From IMG/VR virus record IMGVR_UViG_2579778652_000004: a stretch of DNA of 5,648 bases, one strand, 5' to 3'. A program made the position numbers and the translations under genes. Source of the stretch: a virus (taxonomy: Duplodnaviria > Heunggongvirae > Uroviricota > Caudoviricetes). The notes under the pieces are model-generated. The model ran no database searches, had not been told where the DNA came from, and worked only from the letters and a program-made list of their open reading frames with translations. Positions 1 to 5,648 of the stretch are shown piece after piece (position 1 is the stretch's first letter; each line of letters begins with the position of its first letter).

Positions 1-1
1 T

Positions 2-352
2 CGCAATGTCCGGGCAAAATCAGGTTTAAACCGTTCGATACTGGATCAGGGCTGGTATGAAATGCGCCGCCAGCTTGAGTACAAGCAGCTCTGGCGTGGC
101 GGTCAGGTGCTTGCTGTTCCGCCAGCGTACACAAGCCAGCGTTGCGCGTGCTGTGGTCATACAGCGAAAGAAAATCGCCTGTCACAAAGTAAATTCAGAT
201 GCCAGGTATGTGGATATACAGCGAACGCCGATGTAAACGGCGCTCGTAACATTTTAGCGGCGGGGCACGCCGTACTTGCCTGTGGAGGGATGGTGCAGTC
301 AGGCCGCCCGTTGAAGCAGGAACCCACCGAAATGATTCAGGCGACAGCCTGA
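2..352 (+). CDS. tnpB: IS200/IS605-family TnpB (OrfB) RNA-guided nuclease, C-terminal ~117 aa; 5' end lies outside the window
   Basis: The frame is open from the window edge: [20 protein letters not shown] precedes the Met at 62, so the 96-aa ORF in the track is the tail of a longer protein. It carries the TnpB C-terminal signature: 'SILDQGW...RRQLEYK', a CxxC...CxxC zinc ribbon (CACCGHT ... CQVCGYT) and the RuvC-III-like '[10 protein letters not shown]' motif with the Asp retained. Stop TGA at 350-352. Confidence 0.85.
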
Positions 353-410
353 ACGTAGCAGGAATCCACGCCCTTCGGGGCGTGGAGGATGTCACACTGC
401 CTCTTTAATG
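230..410 (+). ncRNA. Candidate TnpB-associated guide RNA (omega RNA / reRNA) overlapping the tnpB 3' end and IS right end; coordinates approximate
   Basis: Established knowledge for IS200/IS605 TnpB: the guide RNA scaffold is encoded by the 3' end of tnpB plus the right end, with about 16 nt of guide copied from DNA just outside the IS. The UUCG hairpin at 365-386 on the tnpB-sense strand fits a terminal scaffold stem. No RNA ends can be determined from sequence alone. Confidence 0.25.
365..386. repeat. Hairpin: 9-bp stem (365-373 / 378-386) with TTCG loop, immediately 3' of tnpB
   Basis: Read directly: tccacgccc-ttcg-gggcgtgga. In plus-sense RNA this is a C(UUCG)G tetraloop hairpin. It is part of a 30-nt motif repeated at 4118-4147. 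Confidence 0.75.
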
Positions 411-757
411 TTGGCGGCTATCCATGCCGCCGTGTGCTGTTTAACCTGGTCCAGGTCGATGTATGTGCCAACATATTGACTCAAGTCCTGTAACGTACCG
501 ATAAATGCATCAGTGCTCTGATCGACGAATTTATCAGCCAGGAAATCAGCAACCAGTTTTGGCACACCATCATGTTCCGAAGGTTGTTTTTCCTCGCCAC
601 TACCACCGCCGGACGCGCCGTACCCCATCTGTTGCATGATCTGGTCAATTTCATCGCTGATATCCAGCAACTCCATACCACTCGCGATAGCCGCTTTGGA
701 CATCAGAGCATCCAACTTATCGCTGAGATCCATTAACTCAATAGCTGATAGTGTCAT
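392..757 (-). CDS. ddrA: Small, strongly acidic protein (121 aa), DdrA-like member of a P1-type Dar anti-restriction operon
   Basis: Its ATG at 755-757 overlaps the darA-like stop (ATGA overlap at 754-757), with a G-rich SD-like stretch upstream. The protein has about 21 Asp/Glu against 7 Lys and no Arg. Position immediately downstream of the darA-like gene matches P1 gene order as I recall it. The stop TGA (392-394) lies inside the repeated hairpin motif. Confidence 0.45.
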   Translation of the reverse strand: MTLSAIELMDLSDKLDALMSKAAIASGMELLDISDEIDQIMQQMGYGASGGGSGEEKQPSEHDGVPKLVADFLADKFVDQSTDAFIGTLQDLSQYVGTYIDLDQVKQHTAAWIAANIKEAV

Positions 758-2673
758 GCCGCTACCCCCGCTTTCTGGATTGCTACCAGCAGATCAGCCA
801 GGTGGCGAGCAGCGCCATTAACCAGCTCTTCGTTTTCCTCAAAACGCCCGGCAGCCTGAAGGGCTGCAATCGCTTCCCGGACATTGCCCCGGGCGTTACG
901 GATCTCCGCCATGTCAGTGCTTTGCATATCCATCACGTTATTGAGATATTCAATGGCTTTATTAGCCTCTGCATCTGCTTCGCTAACCGTTTCATCAGGC
1001 TGTGCCGGGACCGGTTCTGGTTGAGTAATCTCACCGACTTCGGCCTGCAATGCCTTGATCATGCTCTGCACCATTTTCTCGGTGCCAGCGCCCCCAGGAA
1101 ACGCAATATTGGGGAAAGTTTTTTGAAACTGAGTTTTCAGCATTACGCGGAACTCGTCTGGTGAGCTGGTGGCCAGCTCCAGAGCTTTTTGTGCATATTT
1201 GCCAAACGGACCATTAGTAAGTGTCTTCGCCAGGAAGTCGAAAGAATCCTCGCGAGGCAATAACTTCAGGTCGTACTCACTCATTTGCTGATCAGAAAGC
1301 GGGGTATCGTAAGTAGCAATGCCGTAGCGTGCATATTCATAATACGGGTCACCTTCATCAGGGCGCGGCAGAATTGCTTTGTTACCTTCAGGTATTGCGC
1401 CAGGGGCCGCCGGACGCATTTGCAGGGCATATCGATATGCACCTACAGAGACTTCTGGTTCAGGCGAAGAGCTACCGGTATCCTCCGCTGGTTCAGGTTC
1501 GACGTTTTCCGGTTTATGTTCTTCTGGTTGGACCAGGTATTCCGATACATTACCCGCTTTATAGGCTTTAAACAGCTTGCCGATCGCATCTGCCATGTCC
1601 ACACCCTGTATGGATTTAGCCTTGATCATGTATACGCTGCCATCCGGATCGGTTAACTGGATATACCCTTCGCCATCCCCAATGAATTGCTTCATTGATG
1701 CACCATTACTGAGCGTCGCTTCCCCGTCCATATGCATACGATTTTTGATACTGGCAAGGCGATCCGTCAGCGCGCGAGAGTACCCACCAGTCATCCCCGC
1801 AGGAGCAATGGTATCGCGCCCACCAGTGCGATTGAGCTGATCAATCTCCGTCTGCAAACGCTCATTCTCTTCATAAAGAGAATCCGCTTCCGATGCAACA
1901 GCGTTAATTTTCTGCTCCAGATCTGCCTTCTGCCCTTCTACCGCTGCCACCTGATCCGCGAGGTCGCTCATGGCATCCTCTTTCTGGTCACTGTCAGCCT
2001 GTAGTTGGGTTATTTCATCAACAAGGGCTTTTTTCTTCTTCTGCGCACGCTGGAATTTTGCCGAGTTTTTCTCTGCAAGGTTGGCAAGTTTCATGGTGAC
2101 CTGCGCCAGCGTCATATCACGTCCACTCATCGGAGCAACGGTGTGAGTAACGTCTTTTTTATTCAGTAAGAACTGGAAAGCAACCAGCGTATCGCTATTG
2201 GTGATCCGGTTTTCCGCTGTCGGGCTATGAAACAGAATGCTGATAGTCTGACCATCACTGAGCGGAATAATGGCTGGCAGGACCGGCAGCCCGTTAACGT
2301 TACGTGCCCGACCAATTTCAGCGCCGCCGATCGCGCGCGCGCCGCTCTGGGCCACATCGCCCGTTTTATCACTCCCCGCAGAGATTCCGGTACCATTCAG
2401 CTTCTGGTTCAATGCCCGGACAAATGCCTGCATGGTCCGGTGTAACTGCAAACGAGTAGAACTAATCGCCTCCAGTAAATCCGTAGCACACCAGTGGATC
2501 GGCGTGTCATAGAAGAACGTAGCCTCGATTTCCTCCAGGGTGTTGGATTCCGTCATCAGATAGCGGTCCTCACCGGCCATTAATGCGCGATATTCATCAT
2601 CAGTCACTGGCGGGGGAAGCGCGTCAAGCCCAGGTTTGATCGTCACCCCTTTATTGATATTGAACTGTTCCAT
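754..2673 (-). CDS. darA: DarA-like protein (639 aa), large component of the phage P1-type 'defence against restriction' system
   Basis: Long uninterrupted ORF with ATG at 2671-2673 and an AGGAAA SD about 8 nt upstream. Size and position (after the holin/antiholin pair and an hdf-like gene) match the P1 darA operon. Residues about 135-215 are paralogous to the upstream 200-aa ORF (shared 'KNSAKFQ'), matching the definition of Hdf as a homologue of a DarA fragment. Contains a coiled-coil-like heptad region (about residues 210-275) and Pro/Glu-rich linkers. Confidence 0.6.
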   Translation of the reverse strand: MEQFNINKGVTIKPGLDALPPPVTDDEYRALMAGEDRYLMTESNTLEEIEATFFYDTPIHWCATDLLEAISSTRLQLHRTMQAFVRALNQKLNGTGISAGSDKTGDVAQSGARAIGGAEIGRARNVNGLPVLPAIIPLSDGQTISILFHSPTAENRITNSDTLVAFQFLLNKKDVTHTVAPMSGRDMTLAQVTMKLANLAEKNSAKFQRAQKKKKALVDEITQLQADSDQKEDAMSDLADQVAAVEGQKADLEQKINAVASEADSLYEENERLQTEIDQLNRTGGRDTIAPAGMTGGYSRALTDRLASIKNRMHMDGEATLSNGASMKQFIGDGEGYIQLTDPDGSVYMIKAKSIQGVDMADAIGKLFKAYKAGNVSEYLVQPEEHKPENVEPEPAEDTGSSSPEPEVSVGAYRYALQMRPAAPGAIPEGNKAILPRPDEGDPYYEYARYGIATYDTPLSDQQMSEYDLKLLPREDSFDFLAKTLTNGPFGKYAQKALELATSSPDEFRVMLKTQFQKTFPNIAFPGGAGTEKMVQSMIKALQAEVGEITQPEPVPAQPDETVSEADAEANKAIEYLNNVMDMQSTDMAEIRNARGNVREAIAALQAAGRFEENEELVNGAARHLADLLVAIQKAGVAA

Positions 2674-2674
2674 G

Positions 2675-3277
2675 TTAATTTCCTGCTTTCAGTTGCTTAA
2701 GACGGCGTTTGAGTTCGCCATTTCGGGCCTTTTCGTTATTGAGTCGGCCTGTCTCCTTATCCAGCTTCGCCCGCAAATCAGTGATCTGCTGTTGATTGAA
2801 AGACACCGAGTTCTGCGCTGATTTATAAGCGGCAACCACCTGAACATTCCGCTGTTTTGCCTCTTGCAGGCGCTGAAAGTTGGATTTTACTGCCGGTTTC
2901 TTGTCTACCGGATTGGCAACACGTTTCGCTTTGGCGATCAGTGATTTCTGGAATTTTGCGGAGTTTTTGCGGGCCGCTTGCCCCATGACGGTACCAAGCG
3001 TCTTGATATCCGGCGACTGAGCGTTAGGAATAGCTTTTCCATTCAGCCTCACAGACGATATATCGCCAGTATCGTTTACCTGTATGGCAAGAATTTGTCC
3101 GTCGTTAAGAACCAGCTTTGCGGTTTTAACTTTAACGCCATCTTTCGTTGTTGCGCGGTTGCTGGAGTCAACCTCAATTACCGTAACACCGGTTTTATTG
3201 ATCGCCGCGATAAGGGATTTCAGCCCCTTTTCATTAACCTGGTCAAAATCGACCGTTGCATACTTATTTTTCGTCAT
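2675..3277 (-). CDS. hdf: Hdf-like protein (about 200 aa; homologue of DarA fragment), Dar system component
   Basis: Shares a roughly 70-aa segment with the DarA-like protein, including 'ARKNSAKFQK' against 'EKNSAKFQR' and 'LNDGQ' against 'LSDGQ', and has a coiled-coil-like C-terminus. The ATG at 3275-3277 (MTKNKY...) is preferred because AGGA sits 8 nt upstream; the track start at 3286 (MCQ...) has the AGGA directly abutting the ATG. Stop TAA at 2675-2677, 1 nt before the darA start. Confidence 0.55.
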   Translation of the reverse strand: MTKNKYATVDFDQVNEKGLKSLIAAINKTGVTVIEVDSSNRATTKDGVKVKTAKLVLNDGQILAIQVNDTGDISSVRLNGKAIPNAQSPDIKTLGTVMGQAARKNSAKFQKSLIAKAKRVANPVDKKPAVKSNFQRLQEAKQRNVQVVAAYKSAQNSVSFNQQQITDLRAKLDKETGRLNNEKARNGELKRRLKQLKAGN

Positions 3278-3707
3278 CTGACACATCCTGTGCGAGATTT
3301 ATTACGTAACTTCTGCGGATTTGCTGAGTAACAGGGAAAATCCGATACAACGGGTTAATGAACGAGTCGCCATGCGTAACCATGACGTTGAAATGCCACA
3401 GCCGTTCTCCTTTACCCATATATTCAGTGGGTATGTACAACCATTCACTGTTTTCGCCCTGTTCAGCCGACGTCAGACAACGTTGTTCGCCTTCAATCAC
3501 AGTCGTCGGCTTCTGAACATCGCGGATCCAATATCTGACCGTTGCGCCGCGCAAAAACGGGAATTTAGACCGGTATTTGAACGGCACCCGGATGAAACCC
3601 GGTTTAATTTCCACATCACCAAGTTCTAAATGCGTGATGTCCTTGCGTTTTAGCAAATAGCGATCGGCTAAGGCTAACGCAAGAACGCATACACCCCAGC
3701 CAATCAT
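3264..3707 (-). CDS. lydB: LydB-like protein (147 aa), putative antiholin / lysis regulator
   Basis: ATG at 3705-3707 overlaps the holin stop (ATGA), with a GGGAGG SD 7 nt upstream. Hydrophobic N-terminus (MIGWGVCVLALALA). Size and position directly after the holin match the P1 lydA-lydB arrangement as I recall it. Confidence 0.5.
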   Translation of the reverse strand: MIGWGVCVLALALADRYLLKRKDITHLELGDVEIKPGFIRVPFKYRSKFPFLRGATVRYWIRDVQKPTTVIEGEQRCLTSAEQGENSEWLYIPTEYMGKGERLWHFNVMVTHGDSFINPLYRIFPVTQQIRRSYVINLAQDVSDDEK

Positions 3708-4033
3708 TTCCCGCCTCCCTTTTTCACCAAACTTGTAAGAACATTCAGAATGCTATCGATATTCACTCGTTTCATCCCTGAAATCACCTCATGACCGTTA
3801 TTGCTGGCTATCGTTACCATTAAGTACGTAATTGATAACTCCCAGCCCTCGTGTTGCCCCAATAGGTACGCCACCGCGCCAGCTGTCACTGCAACAAAGA
3901 TCTCCGTAACCAATCCCAACAAATTGCCAGACTGGCGACCGTCTCGGACATCCATCAGGAACGTGCCTATCCCACCAATTACTGAAAGCAGGAGCGCAAT
4001 AGCAACTGGAGCTAATTCCTGTGTGTCAAGCAC
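3704..4033 (-). CDS. lydA: Holin (LydA-like, 109 aa), GTG start
   Basis: Small protein with 2-3 predicted transmembrane helices (LAPVAIALLLSVIGGIGTFLM; LVTEIFVAVTAGAVAYLL; SITYLMVTIA) and a charged C-terminus (KKGGGK), the classic holin architecture. A perfect AGGAGG SD lies 6 nt upstream of the GTG at 4031-4033. Confidence 0.6.
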   Translation of the reverse strand: MLDTQELAPVAIALLLSVIGGIGTFLMDVRDGRQSGNLLGLVTEIFVAVTAGAVAYLLGQHEGWELSITYLMVTIASNNGHEVISGMKRVNIDSILNVLTSLVKKGGGK

Positions 4034-4039
4034 AAGTTT

Positions 4040-4059
4040 CCTCCTACGTTGTCAGGAGG
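4040..4059 (-). promoter_or_regulatory. Potential SD-sequestering stem-loop in the holin 5' leader (CCUCCU-8 nt-AGGAGG on the mRNA strand)
   Basis: Read directly: plus-strand cctcct (4040-4045) and aggagg (4054-4059) are inverted repeats. On the minus-sense mRNA the lydA-like SD (AGGAGG) can pair with an upstream CCUCCU. Only a 6-bp stem, so stability is modest. Confidence 0.3.
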
Positions 4060-4108
4060 TAATGGTATGCAAAGTAACTTCTTCTCTGATTAAGTTATGT
4101 AATGCGCC

Positions 4109-4148
4109 TTGACATCCTCCACGTCCTTCAGGGCGTGGAGGATGTCAA
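4109..4148. repeat. 40-nt near-perfect palindrome (18-bp stem with one G·T, TTCA loop) overlapping the stop codon and last codons of the DUF1353-like gene; second copy of the motif seen at the IS junction
   Basis: Read directly: ttgacatcctccacgtcc-ttca-gggcgtggaggatgtcaa. Positions 4118-4147 match 365-394 at 28 of 30 nt. The DUF1353-like TGA stop (4128-4130) lies in the loop. Confidence 0.75.
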
Positions 4149-4541
4149 CTGGTATTTTCCTCTTCCAAAAAGTCTGACCGCACAATACATCAGCATCCTG
4201 CGCCAGCGGGGAACACCCAGTACACACATCGCATCAAGAAATATCTTGTCCGCTTCGTGCTTTGTCCGCAGCGCGTTGTCGTACAGCCAGTCGTGAATAA
4301 TCGCCGCTTTGGCGTAACGACCGTGTGGCGGAAATACCGACCAGAGAATGCGCGGTACGCTGGCAAGGTCTGTGACATACCCCGCAGGAACCGCAATCAC
4401 ATCCACGGGGTTATCCGTCAGCCAGAACTCAAACGGCTCAACCAGTCGCCAGCGGTAATCATCGAGCATTTCCAGCACGGCAGGAGTGGTGAATTTACTC
4501 ATCGCCCCATCCCACAACATAACGGCGAACGGCGTCGGCAC
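4128..4541 (-). CDS. Conserved phage protein of unknown function, DUF1353-like (about 124-137 aa depending on start)
   Basis: ORF with 'TDLASVPRILW...HDWLYD' motifs, which I recognise as DUF1353-type. Start is ambiguous: GTG at 4541 (AGGA 7 nt upstream, 47-nt overlap with the upstream gene), or ATG at 4520 or 4502. Confidence 0.5.
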   Translation of the reverse strand: MPTPFAVMLWDGAMSKFTTPAVLEMLDDYRWRLVEPFEFWLTDNPVDVIAVPAGYVTDLASVPRILWSVFPPHGRYAKAAIIHDWLYDNALRTKHEADKIFLDAMCVLGVPRWRRMLMYCAVRLFGRGKYQLTSSTP

Positions 4542-5070
4542 TGTCCAGTCCTGCCACGTCCTCTTTCATCTGCCGCTGGCGTTCGTGTATCTGAAAACCA
4601 CGGATAACCATCGCCTGCAACATGGCAGCGTCCAGCTGTACCAGCTCTTCCGGCGTGAGGGTGACGTCCTGGTTATCCGCGTCAGTCCAGAAAAAGCCCG
4701 CCGGAAGCGCACCCGCCTGTGCCACAGCAATCACCGGTGCCAGGCGGCTTCGTGAAATTTTTCCACCGTCCCAGCGGTGGCCATTCCACTCAAAAATAAT
4801 TCCGGCGTTTTCCTGGTCATCACGCCAGCGACTGATTTCATCATGCTTACTCTGACGGATGCGCTCCAGCTGCGCTTCTGTCATCACAAACGGTGCAATT
4901 TCTCCGGCAAGGCCATCCTGAAGCGCCTGCCAGACGGCCCGGCCTGTTGCTGCGGTATCTGTGGCGGTTGCGGTGTATGGGATAAACTCTGTTTCCCCTT
5001 CAAACAACACCTGACAACTGATCGCGTCATGAGATATGTAAACCGGATTTTTAATTGACAAAATATTCAT
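4495..5070 (-). CDS. Tail-fibre assembly / chaperone-like protein (191 aa)
   Basis: ATG at 5068-5070 with an AAGGTGG SD about 8 nt upstream. It lies immediately downstream of a probable tail-fibre C-terminus and has typical Tfa size. The C-terminal region 'FFWTDADNQDVTLTPEELVQL' resembles tail-fibre-assembly/DUF4376-like proteins; the assignment is by context and motif memory only. Confidence 0.45.
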   Translation of the reverse strand: MNILSIKNPVYISHDAISCQVLFEGETEFIPYTATATDTAATGRAVWQALQDGLAGEIAPFVMTEAQLERIRQSKHDEISRWRDDQENAGIIFEWNGHRWDGGKISRSRLAPVIAVAQAGALPAGFFWTDADNQDVTLTPEELVQLDAAMLQAMVIRGFQIHERQRQMKEDVAGLDSADAVRRYVVGWGDE

Positions 5071-5090
5071 CTATCTAACCACCTTTTTCA

Positions 5091-5648
5091 TTATGCGAAT
5101 CTGATAAAGAGGCCAATTTCGTATCCGGTTATTGCACCTATATATCCGTACAGTGCAGCGTAACTGCCAGGGAATGAGCTTGTACCAATATCATCAACAT
5201 TAAATATCAGCGTTTTCATGTCGGGCTTTAATTCAATATTAATATCCCTTAAATAACGACCATCTACCATGCGGCCACGGGCTGTCATAGTGAAATCATC
5301 TGCTGGCCTCATATATGCGGCAAGAAATACATTACCAACATCAGGTTCAAAGGTCGCACTATGCGATCTGATTCGCCTTGCTATTAGATCAGGCGTCACC
5401 AGAAATTCCTGCATGGAATAGAGTGTATCGAGCGAAATAAACTGTCTGGCAATTTCTGAAATGCTTGCCAGACTAATCTTTTTATCCGCGTCAAAATACG
5501 GAAATGCATTTCCGGCAGGCATTAATTTACTTAGTGCCGTCAGCATGTCATTCAGTGGTTGTTTTTTATCAAGAGCAGCTTTAATCGCCTTAACCGCCTT
5601 TGGTGTGGCAGCTTCCGTTTCGCTTTCACTGTCAGTATCGCTACTTAA
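5091..5648 (-). CDS. 3' part of a gene whose frame is open to the right window edge; probably the C-terminal (distal, receptor-binding) part of a tail-fibre protein
   Basis: The minus-strand frame stays open upstream of the Met at 5546 through to 5648 (…SDTDSESETEAATPKAVKAIKAALDKK…). Stop TAA at 5091-5093, 20 nt before the Tfa-like start. AT-rich (about 40% GC against about 55-60% in the Dar genes). Function is inferred from position upstream of the tfa-like gene. Confidence 0.35.
   Translation of the reverse strand, partial: LSSDTDSESETEAATPKAVKAIKAALDKKQPLNDMLTALSKLMPAGNAFPYFDADKKISLASISEIARQFISLDTLYSMQEFLVTPDLIARRIRSHSATFEPDVGNVFLAAYMRPADDFTMTARGRMVDGRYLRDINIELKPDMKTLIFNVDDIGTSSFPGSYAALYGYIGAITGYEIGLFIRFA

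Follow-up and report, generated by a model that had tools for sequence, protein, structure and literature searches.

A P1-type hdf-darA-ddrA block between an insertion-element end and an IS-end-like palindrome, with an exchanged tail-fibre module, in a P1-like phage-plasmid

The closest described counterpart of the locus analysed here is the darA operon of phage P1 (lydA-lydB-hdf-darA-ddrA-ddrB; AJ000741, NC_005856 27542-31230), which is expressed late and for whose mechanism PMC12810830 and PMC9024508 (Table) are the sources. The basic P1 protein Hdf pairs with DarA via parallel α-helices of complementary charge, and the pairs, 55 to a head, sit on the inner capsid surface at the penton-hexon junctions (PMC12810830). 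The P1 prohead protease cuts ~70 N-terminal residues off DarA. The Hdf-DarA pair steers head size towards the large T=13 form and away from the small T=7 one (PMC12810830, PMC9024508), and DarA and Hdf are absent from T=7 heads (bioRxiv 10.1101/2025.11.26.689930). According to PMC12810830, virions made without DarA or without Hdf lack DdrA, DdrB, DarB and Ulx altogether. Cryo-EM places the positively charged face of the pair in contact with the packaged DNA, with which the proteins exit the head (PMC12810830). PMC12707154 describes Dar protection as working in cis only, on DNA from the same virion, and work on P1 makes protection against the type I systems EcoA and StySA dependent on DarA/DdrA and that against EcoB and EcoK dependent on DarB/Ulx/DdrB. 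Dar resembles T4 IPI, T7 Ocr and ArdA in that a protein arriving with the DNA, or right after it, neutralises restriction. Ocr, IPI and ArdA bind the restriction enzyme, whereas P1 Dar is a six-protein set on a capsid platform that, unlike them, is confined to action in cis and also controls head size; no sequence relationship between Dar and IPI, Ocr or ArdA was seen here.

We compared the window, that is, the whole 5,648-nt stretch of DNA analysed, with P1 and its relatives. Positions 397-4082 aligned with P1 at 98.4% DNA identity (megablast, E = 0), and the interval 392-3286 is almost certainly the hdf-darA-ddrA portion of a Punavirus darA operon, carried by a P1-like phage-plasmid. It holds three co-directional minus-strand ORFs: hdf (2675-3286; 203 aa, basic, pI 10.3), darA (754-2673; 639 aa) and ddrA (392-757; 121 aa, acidic, pI 4.07), whose products are 98.0%, 98.4% and 96.7% identical to P1 Hdf, DarA and DdrA, with 4, 10 and 4 residue differences, respectively. 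The first-pass annotation had recognised these three ORFs at 392-3277 and had assigned them to the P1 operon by gene size, order and the internal Hdf/DarA paralogy, all of which the alignments bear out. Its end at 3277 is an alternative ATG of hdf giving a 200-aa product; AJ000741, the original record of the P1 darA operon, lists both starts, and RefSeq carries the 200-aa form. Searches of PHROGs returned the DdrA-like family for DdrA (PHROG 1855, 'DdrA-like anti-restriction protein', 1.5e-56), the Hdf-like family for Hdf (PHROG 1620, 2.1e-79) and the DarA family. DarA carries the Pfam domains DarA_N (PF18788, 3.8e-42) and DarA_C (PF18789, 5.8e-17), and Hdf has DarA_N alone (1.5e-21). The occurrence of DarA_N in both proteins indicates that the Hdf/DarA paralogy suggested earlier is real, and BLASTP aligned Hdf 29-115 with DarA 107-210 (29% identity, E = 9e-4). 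DarA corresponds end to end to chain I of PDB 9UKM ('Defense against restriction protein A') and Hdf to chain H ('Hdf'), and both also match chains of PDB 9VZ0 at full length. The dN/dS relative to P1 is ~0.16 (range 0.12-0.18; ddrA 0.12, darA 0.18), so the genes are under purifying selection. On these comparisons hdf, darA and ddrA are intact and orthologous to the P1 genes.

Directly upstream on the same strand are two lysis genes, in agreement with the earlier placement of the block downstream of such genes. The gene for the LydA-holin antagonist, lydB (3264-3707), encodes a product with a strong Pfam LydB match (8.1e-104) and 98.6% identity to P1 LydB, and the holin gene lydA (3704-4033) has a GTG start after AGGAGG and encodes a Phage_holin_3_3 (Pfam) protein 100% identical to P1 LydA. 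None of the five ORFs, from lydA to ddrA, is truncated, and their starts and stops are P1-like. Successive genes overlap or abut, with ATGA at the lydA/lydB and darA/ddrA junctions, TAAcATG at hdf/darA and a 23-nt overlap between lydB and hdf, suggesting that their translation is coupled. The late promoter LPdar lies on the minus strand at 4062-4080, and its -22 box, AAGTTACTT (4080-4072), and -10 element, TACCAT (4067-4062), have the same sequence as the P1 LPdar annotated in AF234172 and AJ000741. The dar genes are thus placed behind lydA-lydB under a predicted, Lpa-dependent late promoter; homology to P1 stops at 4082, 2 bp upstream of it. A scan of the window for promoters and terminators gave counts no higher than in shuffled sequence (6 terminators versus 5.5), with no canonical terminator on the minus strand after ddrA. 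The only striking site in the terminator scan, at 4109-4148, scored on the plus strand, antisense to the operon.

The P1 gene order, which had also been claimed for the locus, is kept for hdf-darA-ddrA and does not extend to ddrB. In P1, ddrB is co-directional and starts 12 bp downstream of ddrA, whereas here the end of a tnpB-only element of the IS200/IS605 family occupies the place directly after ddrA. The plus-strand 3' end of its tnpB gene ('insQ') lies at 1-352 and comprises the final 117 codons including the stop (Pfam Cas12f1-like_TNB, 2.2e-23); at the same position pMUB-MIN10-2 has a gene annotated as RNA-guided endonuclease TnpB and RCS47 one annotated as insQ. A plus-strand hairpin at 365-395, TCCACGCCC-TTCG-GGGCGTGGA followed by GGATGTCAC, forms the right end of the element, which finishes at 395 (RNA fold -28.2 kcal/mol, z = -3.2). 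Comparison of the junction with P1 and RCS47 showed that the insertion is precise, after P1 GCCTTAT^GCTGCC. The third base of codon 121 of ddrA and its stop codon come from the IS end, so that the insertion regenerates the stop and DdrA is still 121 aa long. In RCS47 and in three relatives containing the full window, a 1.35-kb tnpB element in opposite orientation sits between ddrA/LPdar and ddrB. The insertion changes the arrangement and leaves the identity of hdf, darA and ddrA unaffected; as it splits ddrB from ddrA and LPdar, the supply of DdrB, and hence the DarB branch, might differ.

The same insertion, at the identical nucleotide, is present in the Punavirus genomes RCS47 and SJ46, which are 99.1% and 98.2% identical to the window over 1-4082. 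DdrA ends in Ala-Ala in RCS47 and in Ala-Val in the window because of a G-to-A change at position 396. Upstream of lydA, RCS47 retains lydC, a disrupted cin and the S/U/U' tail-fibre genes, which the window does not have. The arrangement of the whole window was found only in pMUB-MIN10-2 (NZ_CP069679.1), pHNBY4G-2 and the ECNB21-M121 plasmid (98.6%, 98.1% and 98.1% identity), and no record in the three collections searched exceeded 98.6% over its full length. In the latter two plasmids a second tnpB element is inserted upstream of LPdar, at a distance of 3 bp from the -22 box. Of the complete replicons, pMUB-MIN10-2, an E. coli plasmid of 98 kb, comes closest; the match takes in all 5,648 bases, and the plasmid's tail-fibre gene is annotated in two pieces. 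The first-pass annotation had pointed to darB, ulx, ddrB and P1 hallmark genes as a check on the full replicon. In pMUB-MIN10-2, DarB, Ulx, DdrB and Cre are 98.8%, 98.6%, 98.8% and 100% identical to their P1 counterparts; Prt, Pro and Lyz are encoded; C1 repressor, Lpa, terminase, Phd/Doc and a RepB-family replication initiator are annotated; and the partition genes are of ParA/ParB type, annotated as ParB and an AAA ATPase.

Beyond LPdar the window and P1 diverge. In P1 this place is taken by lydC-cin and the invertible C segment, whereas the window has a module of DUF1353, DUF4376 and tail-fibre genes; the lydC-cin-invertible segment has been swapped for the tail-fibre module of a P2-like prophage. 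The junction between the P1 backbone and this foreign module is a near-perfect 40-nt palindrome at 4109-4148, with no strand assigned, that resembles the IS right end (93% to 365-394; RNA fold -30.3 kcal/mol, z = -6.3). Three minus-strand genes follow: a DUF1353 gene at 4128-4541 (Pfam 1.1e-32; PHROG 1158, 'tail assembly chaperone'), with a RefSeq start at 4502 and its final 7 codons inside the palindrome, whose product is tail-assembly-chaperone-like; a DUF4376 gene for a tail-fibre-associated protein at 4495-5070 (Pfam 3.5e-20; PHROG 1141, 'tail fiber protein', 5.8e-77); and the C-terminal 185 codons of a tail-fibre gene at 5091-5648, which runs past the window edge and was assigned from its open frame, the annotation of relatives and a weak PHROG 2636 match. 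Neither lydC nor cin occurs upstream of LPdar in the window, and tblastn did not find Cin, U or U' in pMUB-MIN10-2; the Cin-invertible C segment with its S/U and S'/U' alternatives is a Punavirus feature absent here. In the phage collection, the palindrome was the only part of 4083-5648 with a DNA match. Rfam searches returned sub-threshold hits only (RAGATH-18, 28 bits against a cut-off of 44.9; HgcC, 22 against 50), which is no evidence of an RNA gene. IS-end-like features occur at both borders of the P1-derived block, the element end at 395 and the palindrome at 4109-4148, and relatives show a second tnpB insertion site after 4083. That IS200/IS605-type ends at module borders drive the exchange of modules in P1-like elements, and that tnpB could uncouple DdrB from late transcription, is a distinctly improbable proposal. 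If true, a Cin-invertible tail-fibre switch would have been exchanged for a fixed P2-type fibre, and uncoupling of DdrB would alter which restriction systems the phage escapes.

These border features bear on whether the block is still a working module. With the tnpB gene and its element end (1-395) on one side, the IS-end-like palindrome on the other and the neighbouring lydC-cin-C-segment of P1 replaced, it could be what is left of a decaying module in a defective plasmid derived from P1, no longer serving as an anti-restriction or capsid module. We consider this very unlikely: the five undamaged reading frames, the low dN/dS, the unchanged LPdar and the ddrA stop restored by the insertion itself all speak against decay. 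The IS-bearing arrangement is moreover common to RCS47 and SJ46, both deposited as phage genomes, and the closest replicon retains head, portal, protease, tail, lysis and late-activator genes. There is next to no chance that the genes are host-chromosomal, or belong to an unrelated mobile element resembling P1 in gene sizes only. Thirteen of the 489 places in E. coli that match the block are chromosomal, and a chromosomal P2-like prophage shares 99.6% identity with the right-hand 1.5 kb of the window; that match, however, begins only at 4152 and is without dar genes. The other 476 places are on plasmids, of ~90-117 kb among the matches listed, consistent with the earlier reading of the block as phage cargo rather than host chromosome, and the three records that span the window from end to end are all P1-like plasmids (94.6, 98.1 and 101.6 kb). 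A chromosomal or unrelated origin of the dar block is refuted by its sequence identity to P1.

Given 97-98% protein identity to P1, the proteins of the window probably do the same as their P1 counterparts. LPdar would drive late transcription of lydA-lydB-hdf-darA-ddrA; Hdf and DarA would pair, dock inside the capsid and bias assembly towards T=13 heads; the Hdf-DarA platform would bring DdrA, DdrB, DarB and Ulx into the virion; and the Dar proteins would leave the head with the DNA and protect DNA of the same virion from type I restriction. The high pI of Hdf and the net negative charge of DarA residues 221-300 fit the helix pairing by complementary charge seen in P1. The role proposed earlier, virion proteins injected with the DNA that protect it from type I restriction, is upheld with the refinement that the P1 Hdf-DarA pair also sets head size and loads the other Dar proteins. 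Hdf and DarA might instead themselves be the shield, using their positively charged face to coat or occlude incoming DNA and thereby blocking type I enzymes directly; DdrA, DarB and the rest would then be accessory. The cryo-EM observations of a positively charged DarA-Hdf surface touching DNA and of the complex departing with it agree with such a shield, as do the restriction of Dar to same-virion DNA and earlier literature in which DarA and DarB bind transferred DNA. Yet 55 pairs per ~94-kb genome are too few for DNA coverage, and loss of DarA or Hdf strips the other Dar proteins from the particle, so that the restriction phenotype can be indirect; we regard the shield as unlikely and favour the Hdf-DarA pair as a loading platform. 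On that platform, DdrA would be the factor specific for the EcoA family. It is a small, acidic protein, helical and in part disordered. Its AlphaFold2 model (mean pLDDT 55, pTM 0.37, from an 11-sequence alignment) shows five helices, with residues 47-68 as a disordered linker, and is too poor to inform. No Pfam family and no solved structural relative was found for DdrA, and its homologues form only 30 clusters, several of them frameshifted gene calls. Every cluster comes from P1-like elements in Enterobacteriaceae, and identities are 49% or higher; the set is shallow and therefore unfit for remote-homology work. The pI of 4.07 alone hints, speculatively, at a DNA mimic.

Of 5426 complete E. 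coli genomes, 472 contain the dar block, nearly always on a plasmid. The dar genes are well known from P1-like phage-plasmids and unremarkable there; nothing in them is new, and, the block being so common, another copy adds nothing on Dar. In practice the block is of value for anchoring annotation: in many RefSeq records these genes still go under 'hypothetical protein' or 'odaE'. The P1 copies of the proteins now have solved in-situ structures. Together, these results establish that the window belongs to a P1-like phage-plasmid and carries a textbook anti-restriction and capsid-size module, and the block marks a P1-like lineage with an exchanged host-range module.

The first-pass annotation had recognised a P1-type Dar anti-restriction block, hdf-darA-ddrA, from the match of gene sizes, gene order and internal paralogy to the P1 darA operon. 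The coordinates and sizes of its three ORFs proved correct, the end at 3277 being the start of the 200-aa Hdf of RefSeq. The P1 reference and the PDB chain have a 203-aa form, and both starts are annotated in AJ000741, the original record of the P1 darA operon. Compared with their P1 counterparts, DdrA, DarA and Hdf were 96.7%, 98.4% and 98.0% identical, which supports the P1 reading, and the adjacent LydB and LydA were 98.6% and 100% identical. By megablast, 397-4082 was 98.4% identical to P1 (NC_005856 27547-31232) and 1-4082 was 99.1% identical to the P1-like phage RCS47. Over their full lengths, DarA and Hdf also matched the chains of PDB 9UKM, the solved P1 capsid. The proposed Hdf/DarA paralogy is real; it is weak pairwise (29% identity over 105 residues, E = 9e-4) and clear at the profile level, where Pfam DarA_N is found in both proteins and DarA_C in DarA alone. 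In agreement, the DarA-N domain was defined by Iyer et al. (2017) on the N-terminal part of DarA and on Hdf, of which it is the only domain. The observation is thus confirmed and its interpretation supported. The block itself is already known and well characterised, and mildly unusual aspects are found only at its borders.

Among the ORFs of the window, every sizeable gene but one lies on the minus strand, the exception being the 3' end of a tnpB gene (1-352, plus). In transcriptional order, the minus strand begins with the last 185 codons of a tail-fibre gene (5648-5091), whose 5' part lies beyond the window edge, followed by a DUF4376 gene (5070-4495), a DUF1353 gene (start at 4541 or 4502, end at 4128), lydA (4033-3704), lydB (3707-3264), hdf (3286-2675, alternative start 3277), darA (2673-754) and ddrA (757-392). 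Matches in Pfam and PHROGs bear out these names, DdrA being matched by PHROGs and by no Pfam family. The late promoter of the darA operon, LPdar, is base-for-base that of P1, with its -22 box AAGTTACTT at 4080-4072 and its -10 box TACCAT at 4067-4062. lydA starts with GTG preceded by AGGAGG, and translational coupling of the other operon genes is indicated by how they meet: in ATGA overlaps, at a TAAcATG and in a 23-nt overlap. Relative to P1, synonymous changes outnumber non-synonymous ones, with dN/dS of 0.12 for ddrA, 0.18 for darA, 0.13 for hdf; for the entire block, with lydA and lydB counted in, it is 0.16. The genes of the block are under purifying selection and are not in decay.

Public annotation of the block is inconsistent. 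In RefSeq/PLSDB records matching 392-3286, darA is often a 'hypothetical protein', hdf is labelled 'odaE', 'hypothetical protein' or 'defense against restriction DarA-related protein', and one record applies 'internal head protein' to darA and a neighbouring gene.

The best match to the whole window (98.6% identity) was pMUB-MIN10-2, a circular E. coli plasmid of 98,084 bp. This closest replicon carries darB, ulx and ddrB, and is annotated with P1 hallmarks that had been proposed as a check, such as C1 and ParB. Using tblastn with P1 proteins, we found DarB (98.8%), Ulx (98.6%), DdrB (98.8%), Cre and Lxc (both 100%), and Prt, Pro and Lyz (about 99%). The plasmid's annotation adds a C1 repressor, a late-promoter-activating protein, terminase, Phd/Doc, ParB with an AAA ATPase and a RepB-family initiator. 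The same search found neither Res, Cin, U nor U', and LydC gave only a paralogue match to lydA (31%), with no orthologue. The ref-lxc interval (plasmid stretch L004, 26870-28400) contains genes for a hypothetical protein and a GNAT acetyltransferase instead of one for Res, the type III restriction enzyme EcoP1I. Taken alone, the dar block was present in 472 of 5426 complete E. coli genomes; 476 of its places were on plasmids and 13 on chromosomes.

At the left border, a tnpB-only IS200/IS605-family element, ending at 395, separates ddrA from ddrB, as it does in the P1-like phages RCS47 and SJ46. Comparison with P1 revealed that the element had inserted cleanly after GCCTTAT^GCTGCC, in the last sense codon of ddrA, with no duplication of the target. 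Its final bases, GTCAC, complete codon 121 with a third base and bring a new TGA stop, which keeps DdrA at 121 aa; the A121V difference results from a separate G-to-A change at 396. With the element opposing the operon and ddrB displaced from ddrA by about 1.35 kb, ddrB may be subject to a polar effect. A terminator scan of the window found no canonical terminator 3' of ddrA on the minus strand. Rfam matches, all below gathering scores, were seen on the plus strand at 279-408, over the tnpB 3' end and its hairpin (RAGATH-18, 28.1 bits; HgcC, 22.6 bits), and at 4076-4161, over a second palindrome (HgcC, 21.7 bits). TnpB guide (omega/re) RNAs come from the 3'-end part of such elements, and the matches at 279-408 may therefore reflect one.

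At the right border, P1 homology continues for two bases upstream of the LPdar -22 box and ends at 4082. Plasmid pHNBY4G-2 has a further tnpB element, different from the first and 1329 bp long, with a 1176-bp tnpB (L006 7084-8412); it is inserted after the equivalent of 4083, 3 bp upstream of this box, and judging by match length the ECNB21-M121 plasmid has the same element. That it sits where P1 homology ends suggests a recurrent insertion or recombination site at 4079-4083. Just upstream of LPdar lies a 40-nt near-perfect palindrome (4109-4148) that folds strongly (z = -6.3). It contains the final seven DUF1353 codons and shares 93% identity with the hairpin at the right end of the left-border tnpB element (365-394). 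In pMUB-MIN10-2 its 13-nt core occurs only at the equivalents of these two places. The palindrome is likewise found at this junction in a P1-like plasmid that has another tail-fibre module (L007 8099-8139), and Stx2a-converting phages have it in stretches that lack annotation.

Where P1 has lydC, cin and the invertible C segment, the window has the DUF1353 gene, the DUF4376 gene and the tail-fibre C-terminus (4083-5648). From 4152 to its end, the window is 99.6% identical to a chromosomal P2-like prophage (L009 5001-6497), closer than to any P1-like plasmid copy (97.7%); one such prophage resides in the strain hosting pMUB-MIN10-2. The lineage therefore exchanged the lydC-cin-invertible segment of P1 for a fixed P2-type fibre tip and two accessory genes. 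This module was found beside the dar block in only three P1-like plasmids in the collections searched. The last 62 nt of the window (5587-5648), inside the tail-fibre gene, have three further copies (82-89% identity) deeper in the pMUB-MIN10-2 gene (L002 11719-12042), indicating an internal repeat of the fibre shaft. The plasmid annotation splits that gene into two overlapping pieces.

DdrA is the least understood Dar member. Pfam and structure searches returned no family and no solved relative, and a homologue search showed a narrow family restricted to P1-like elements. The protein is strongly acidic (pI 4.07; 21 D+E versus 7 K+R). Residues 1-44 comprise two similar 22-residue segments, MTLSAIELMDLSDKLDALMSKA and AIASGMELLDISDEIDQIMQQM, an internal duplication followed by a Gly/Ser/Glu-rich linker predicted to be disordered. 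A structure model was set aside as too uncertain (pLDDT 55).

In P1, Dar proteins leave with the DNA, which they shield in cis from BREX and from restriction-modification systems of type I (PMC12810830, PMC12707154). Deletion of DarA or Hdf yields particles without every other Dar protein, and cryo-EM (PDB 9UKM) resolves 55 DarA-Hdf pairs bound to the inside of the capsid at penton-hexon junctions (PMC12810830). Parallel helices of complementary charge join the partners, and a positively charged face contacts DNA; DarA residues 1-69 are missing, consistent with Pro cleavage, and the pairs are gone from heads after complete DNA ejection (PMC12810830). A preprint reports DarA and Hdf in T=13 heads and their absence from T=7 heads (bioRxiv 10.1101/2025.11.26.689930). 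A table in PMC9024508 describes DdrA as 'antagonist of EcoA endonuclease' and has DarB inhibiting EcoK and EcoB, with Ulx and DdrB assisting the loading of DarB. Hdf of the window is basic (pI 10.3) and DarA residues 221-300 are net acidic; with these charges and their full-length 9UKM matches, both proteins fit the P1 structural picture. By analogy with P1, the best reading is that Hdf-DarA would serve as a platform bound to the capsid, would help to determine head size and would be ejected along with the DNA, with DdrA as an EcoA-family factor carried on this platform.
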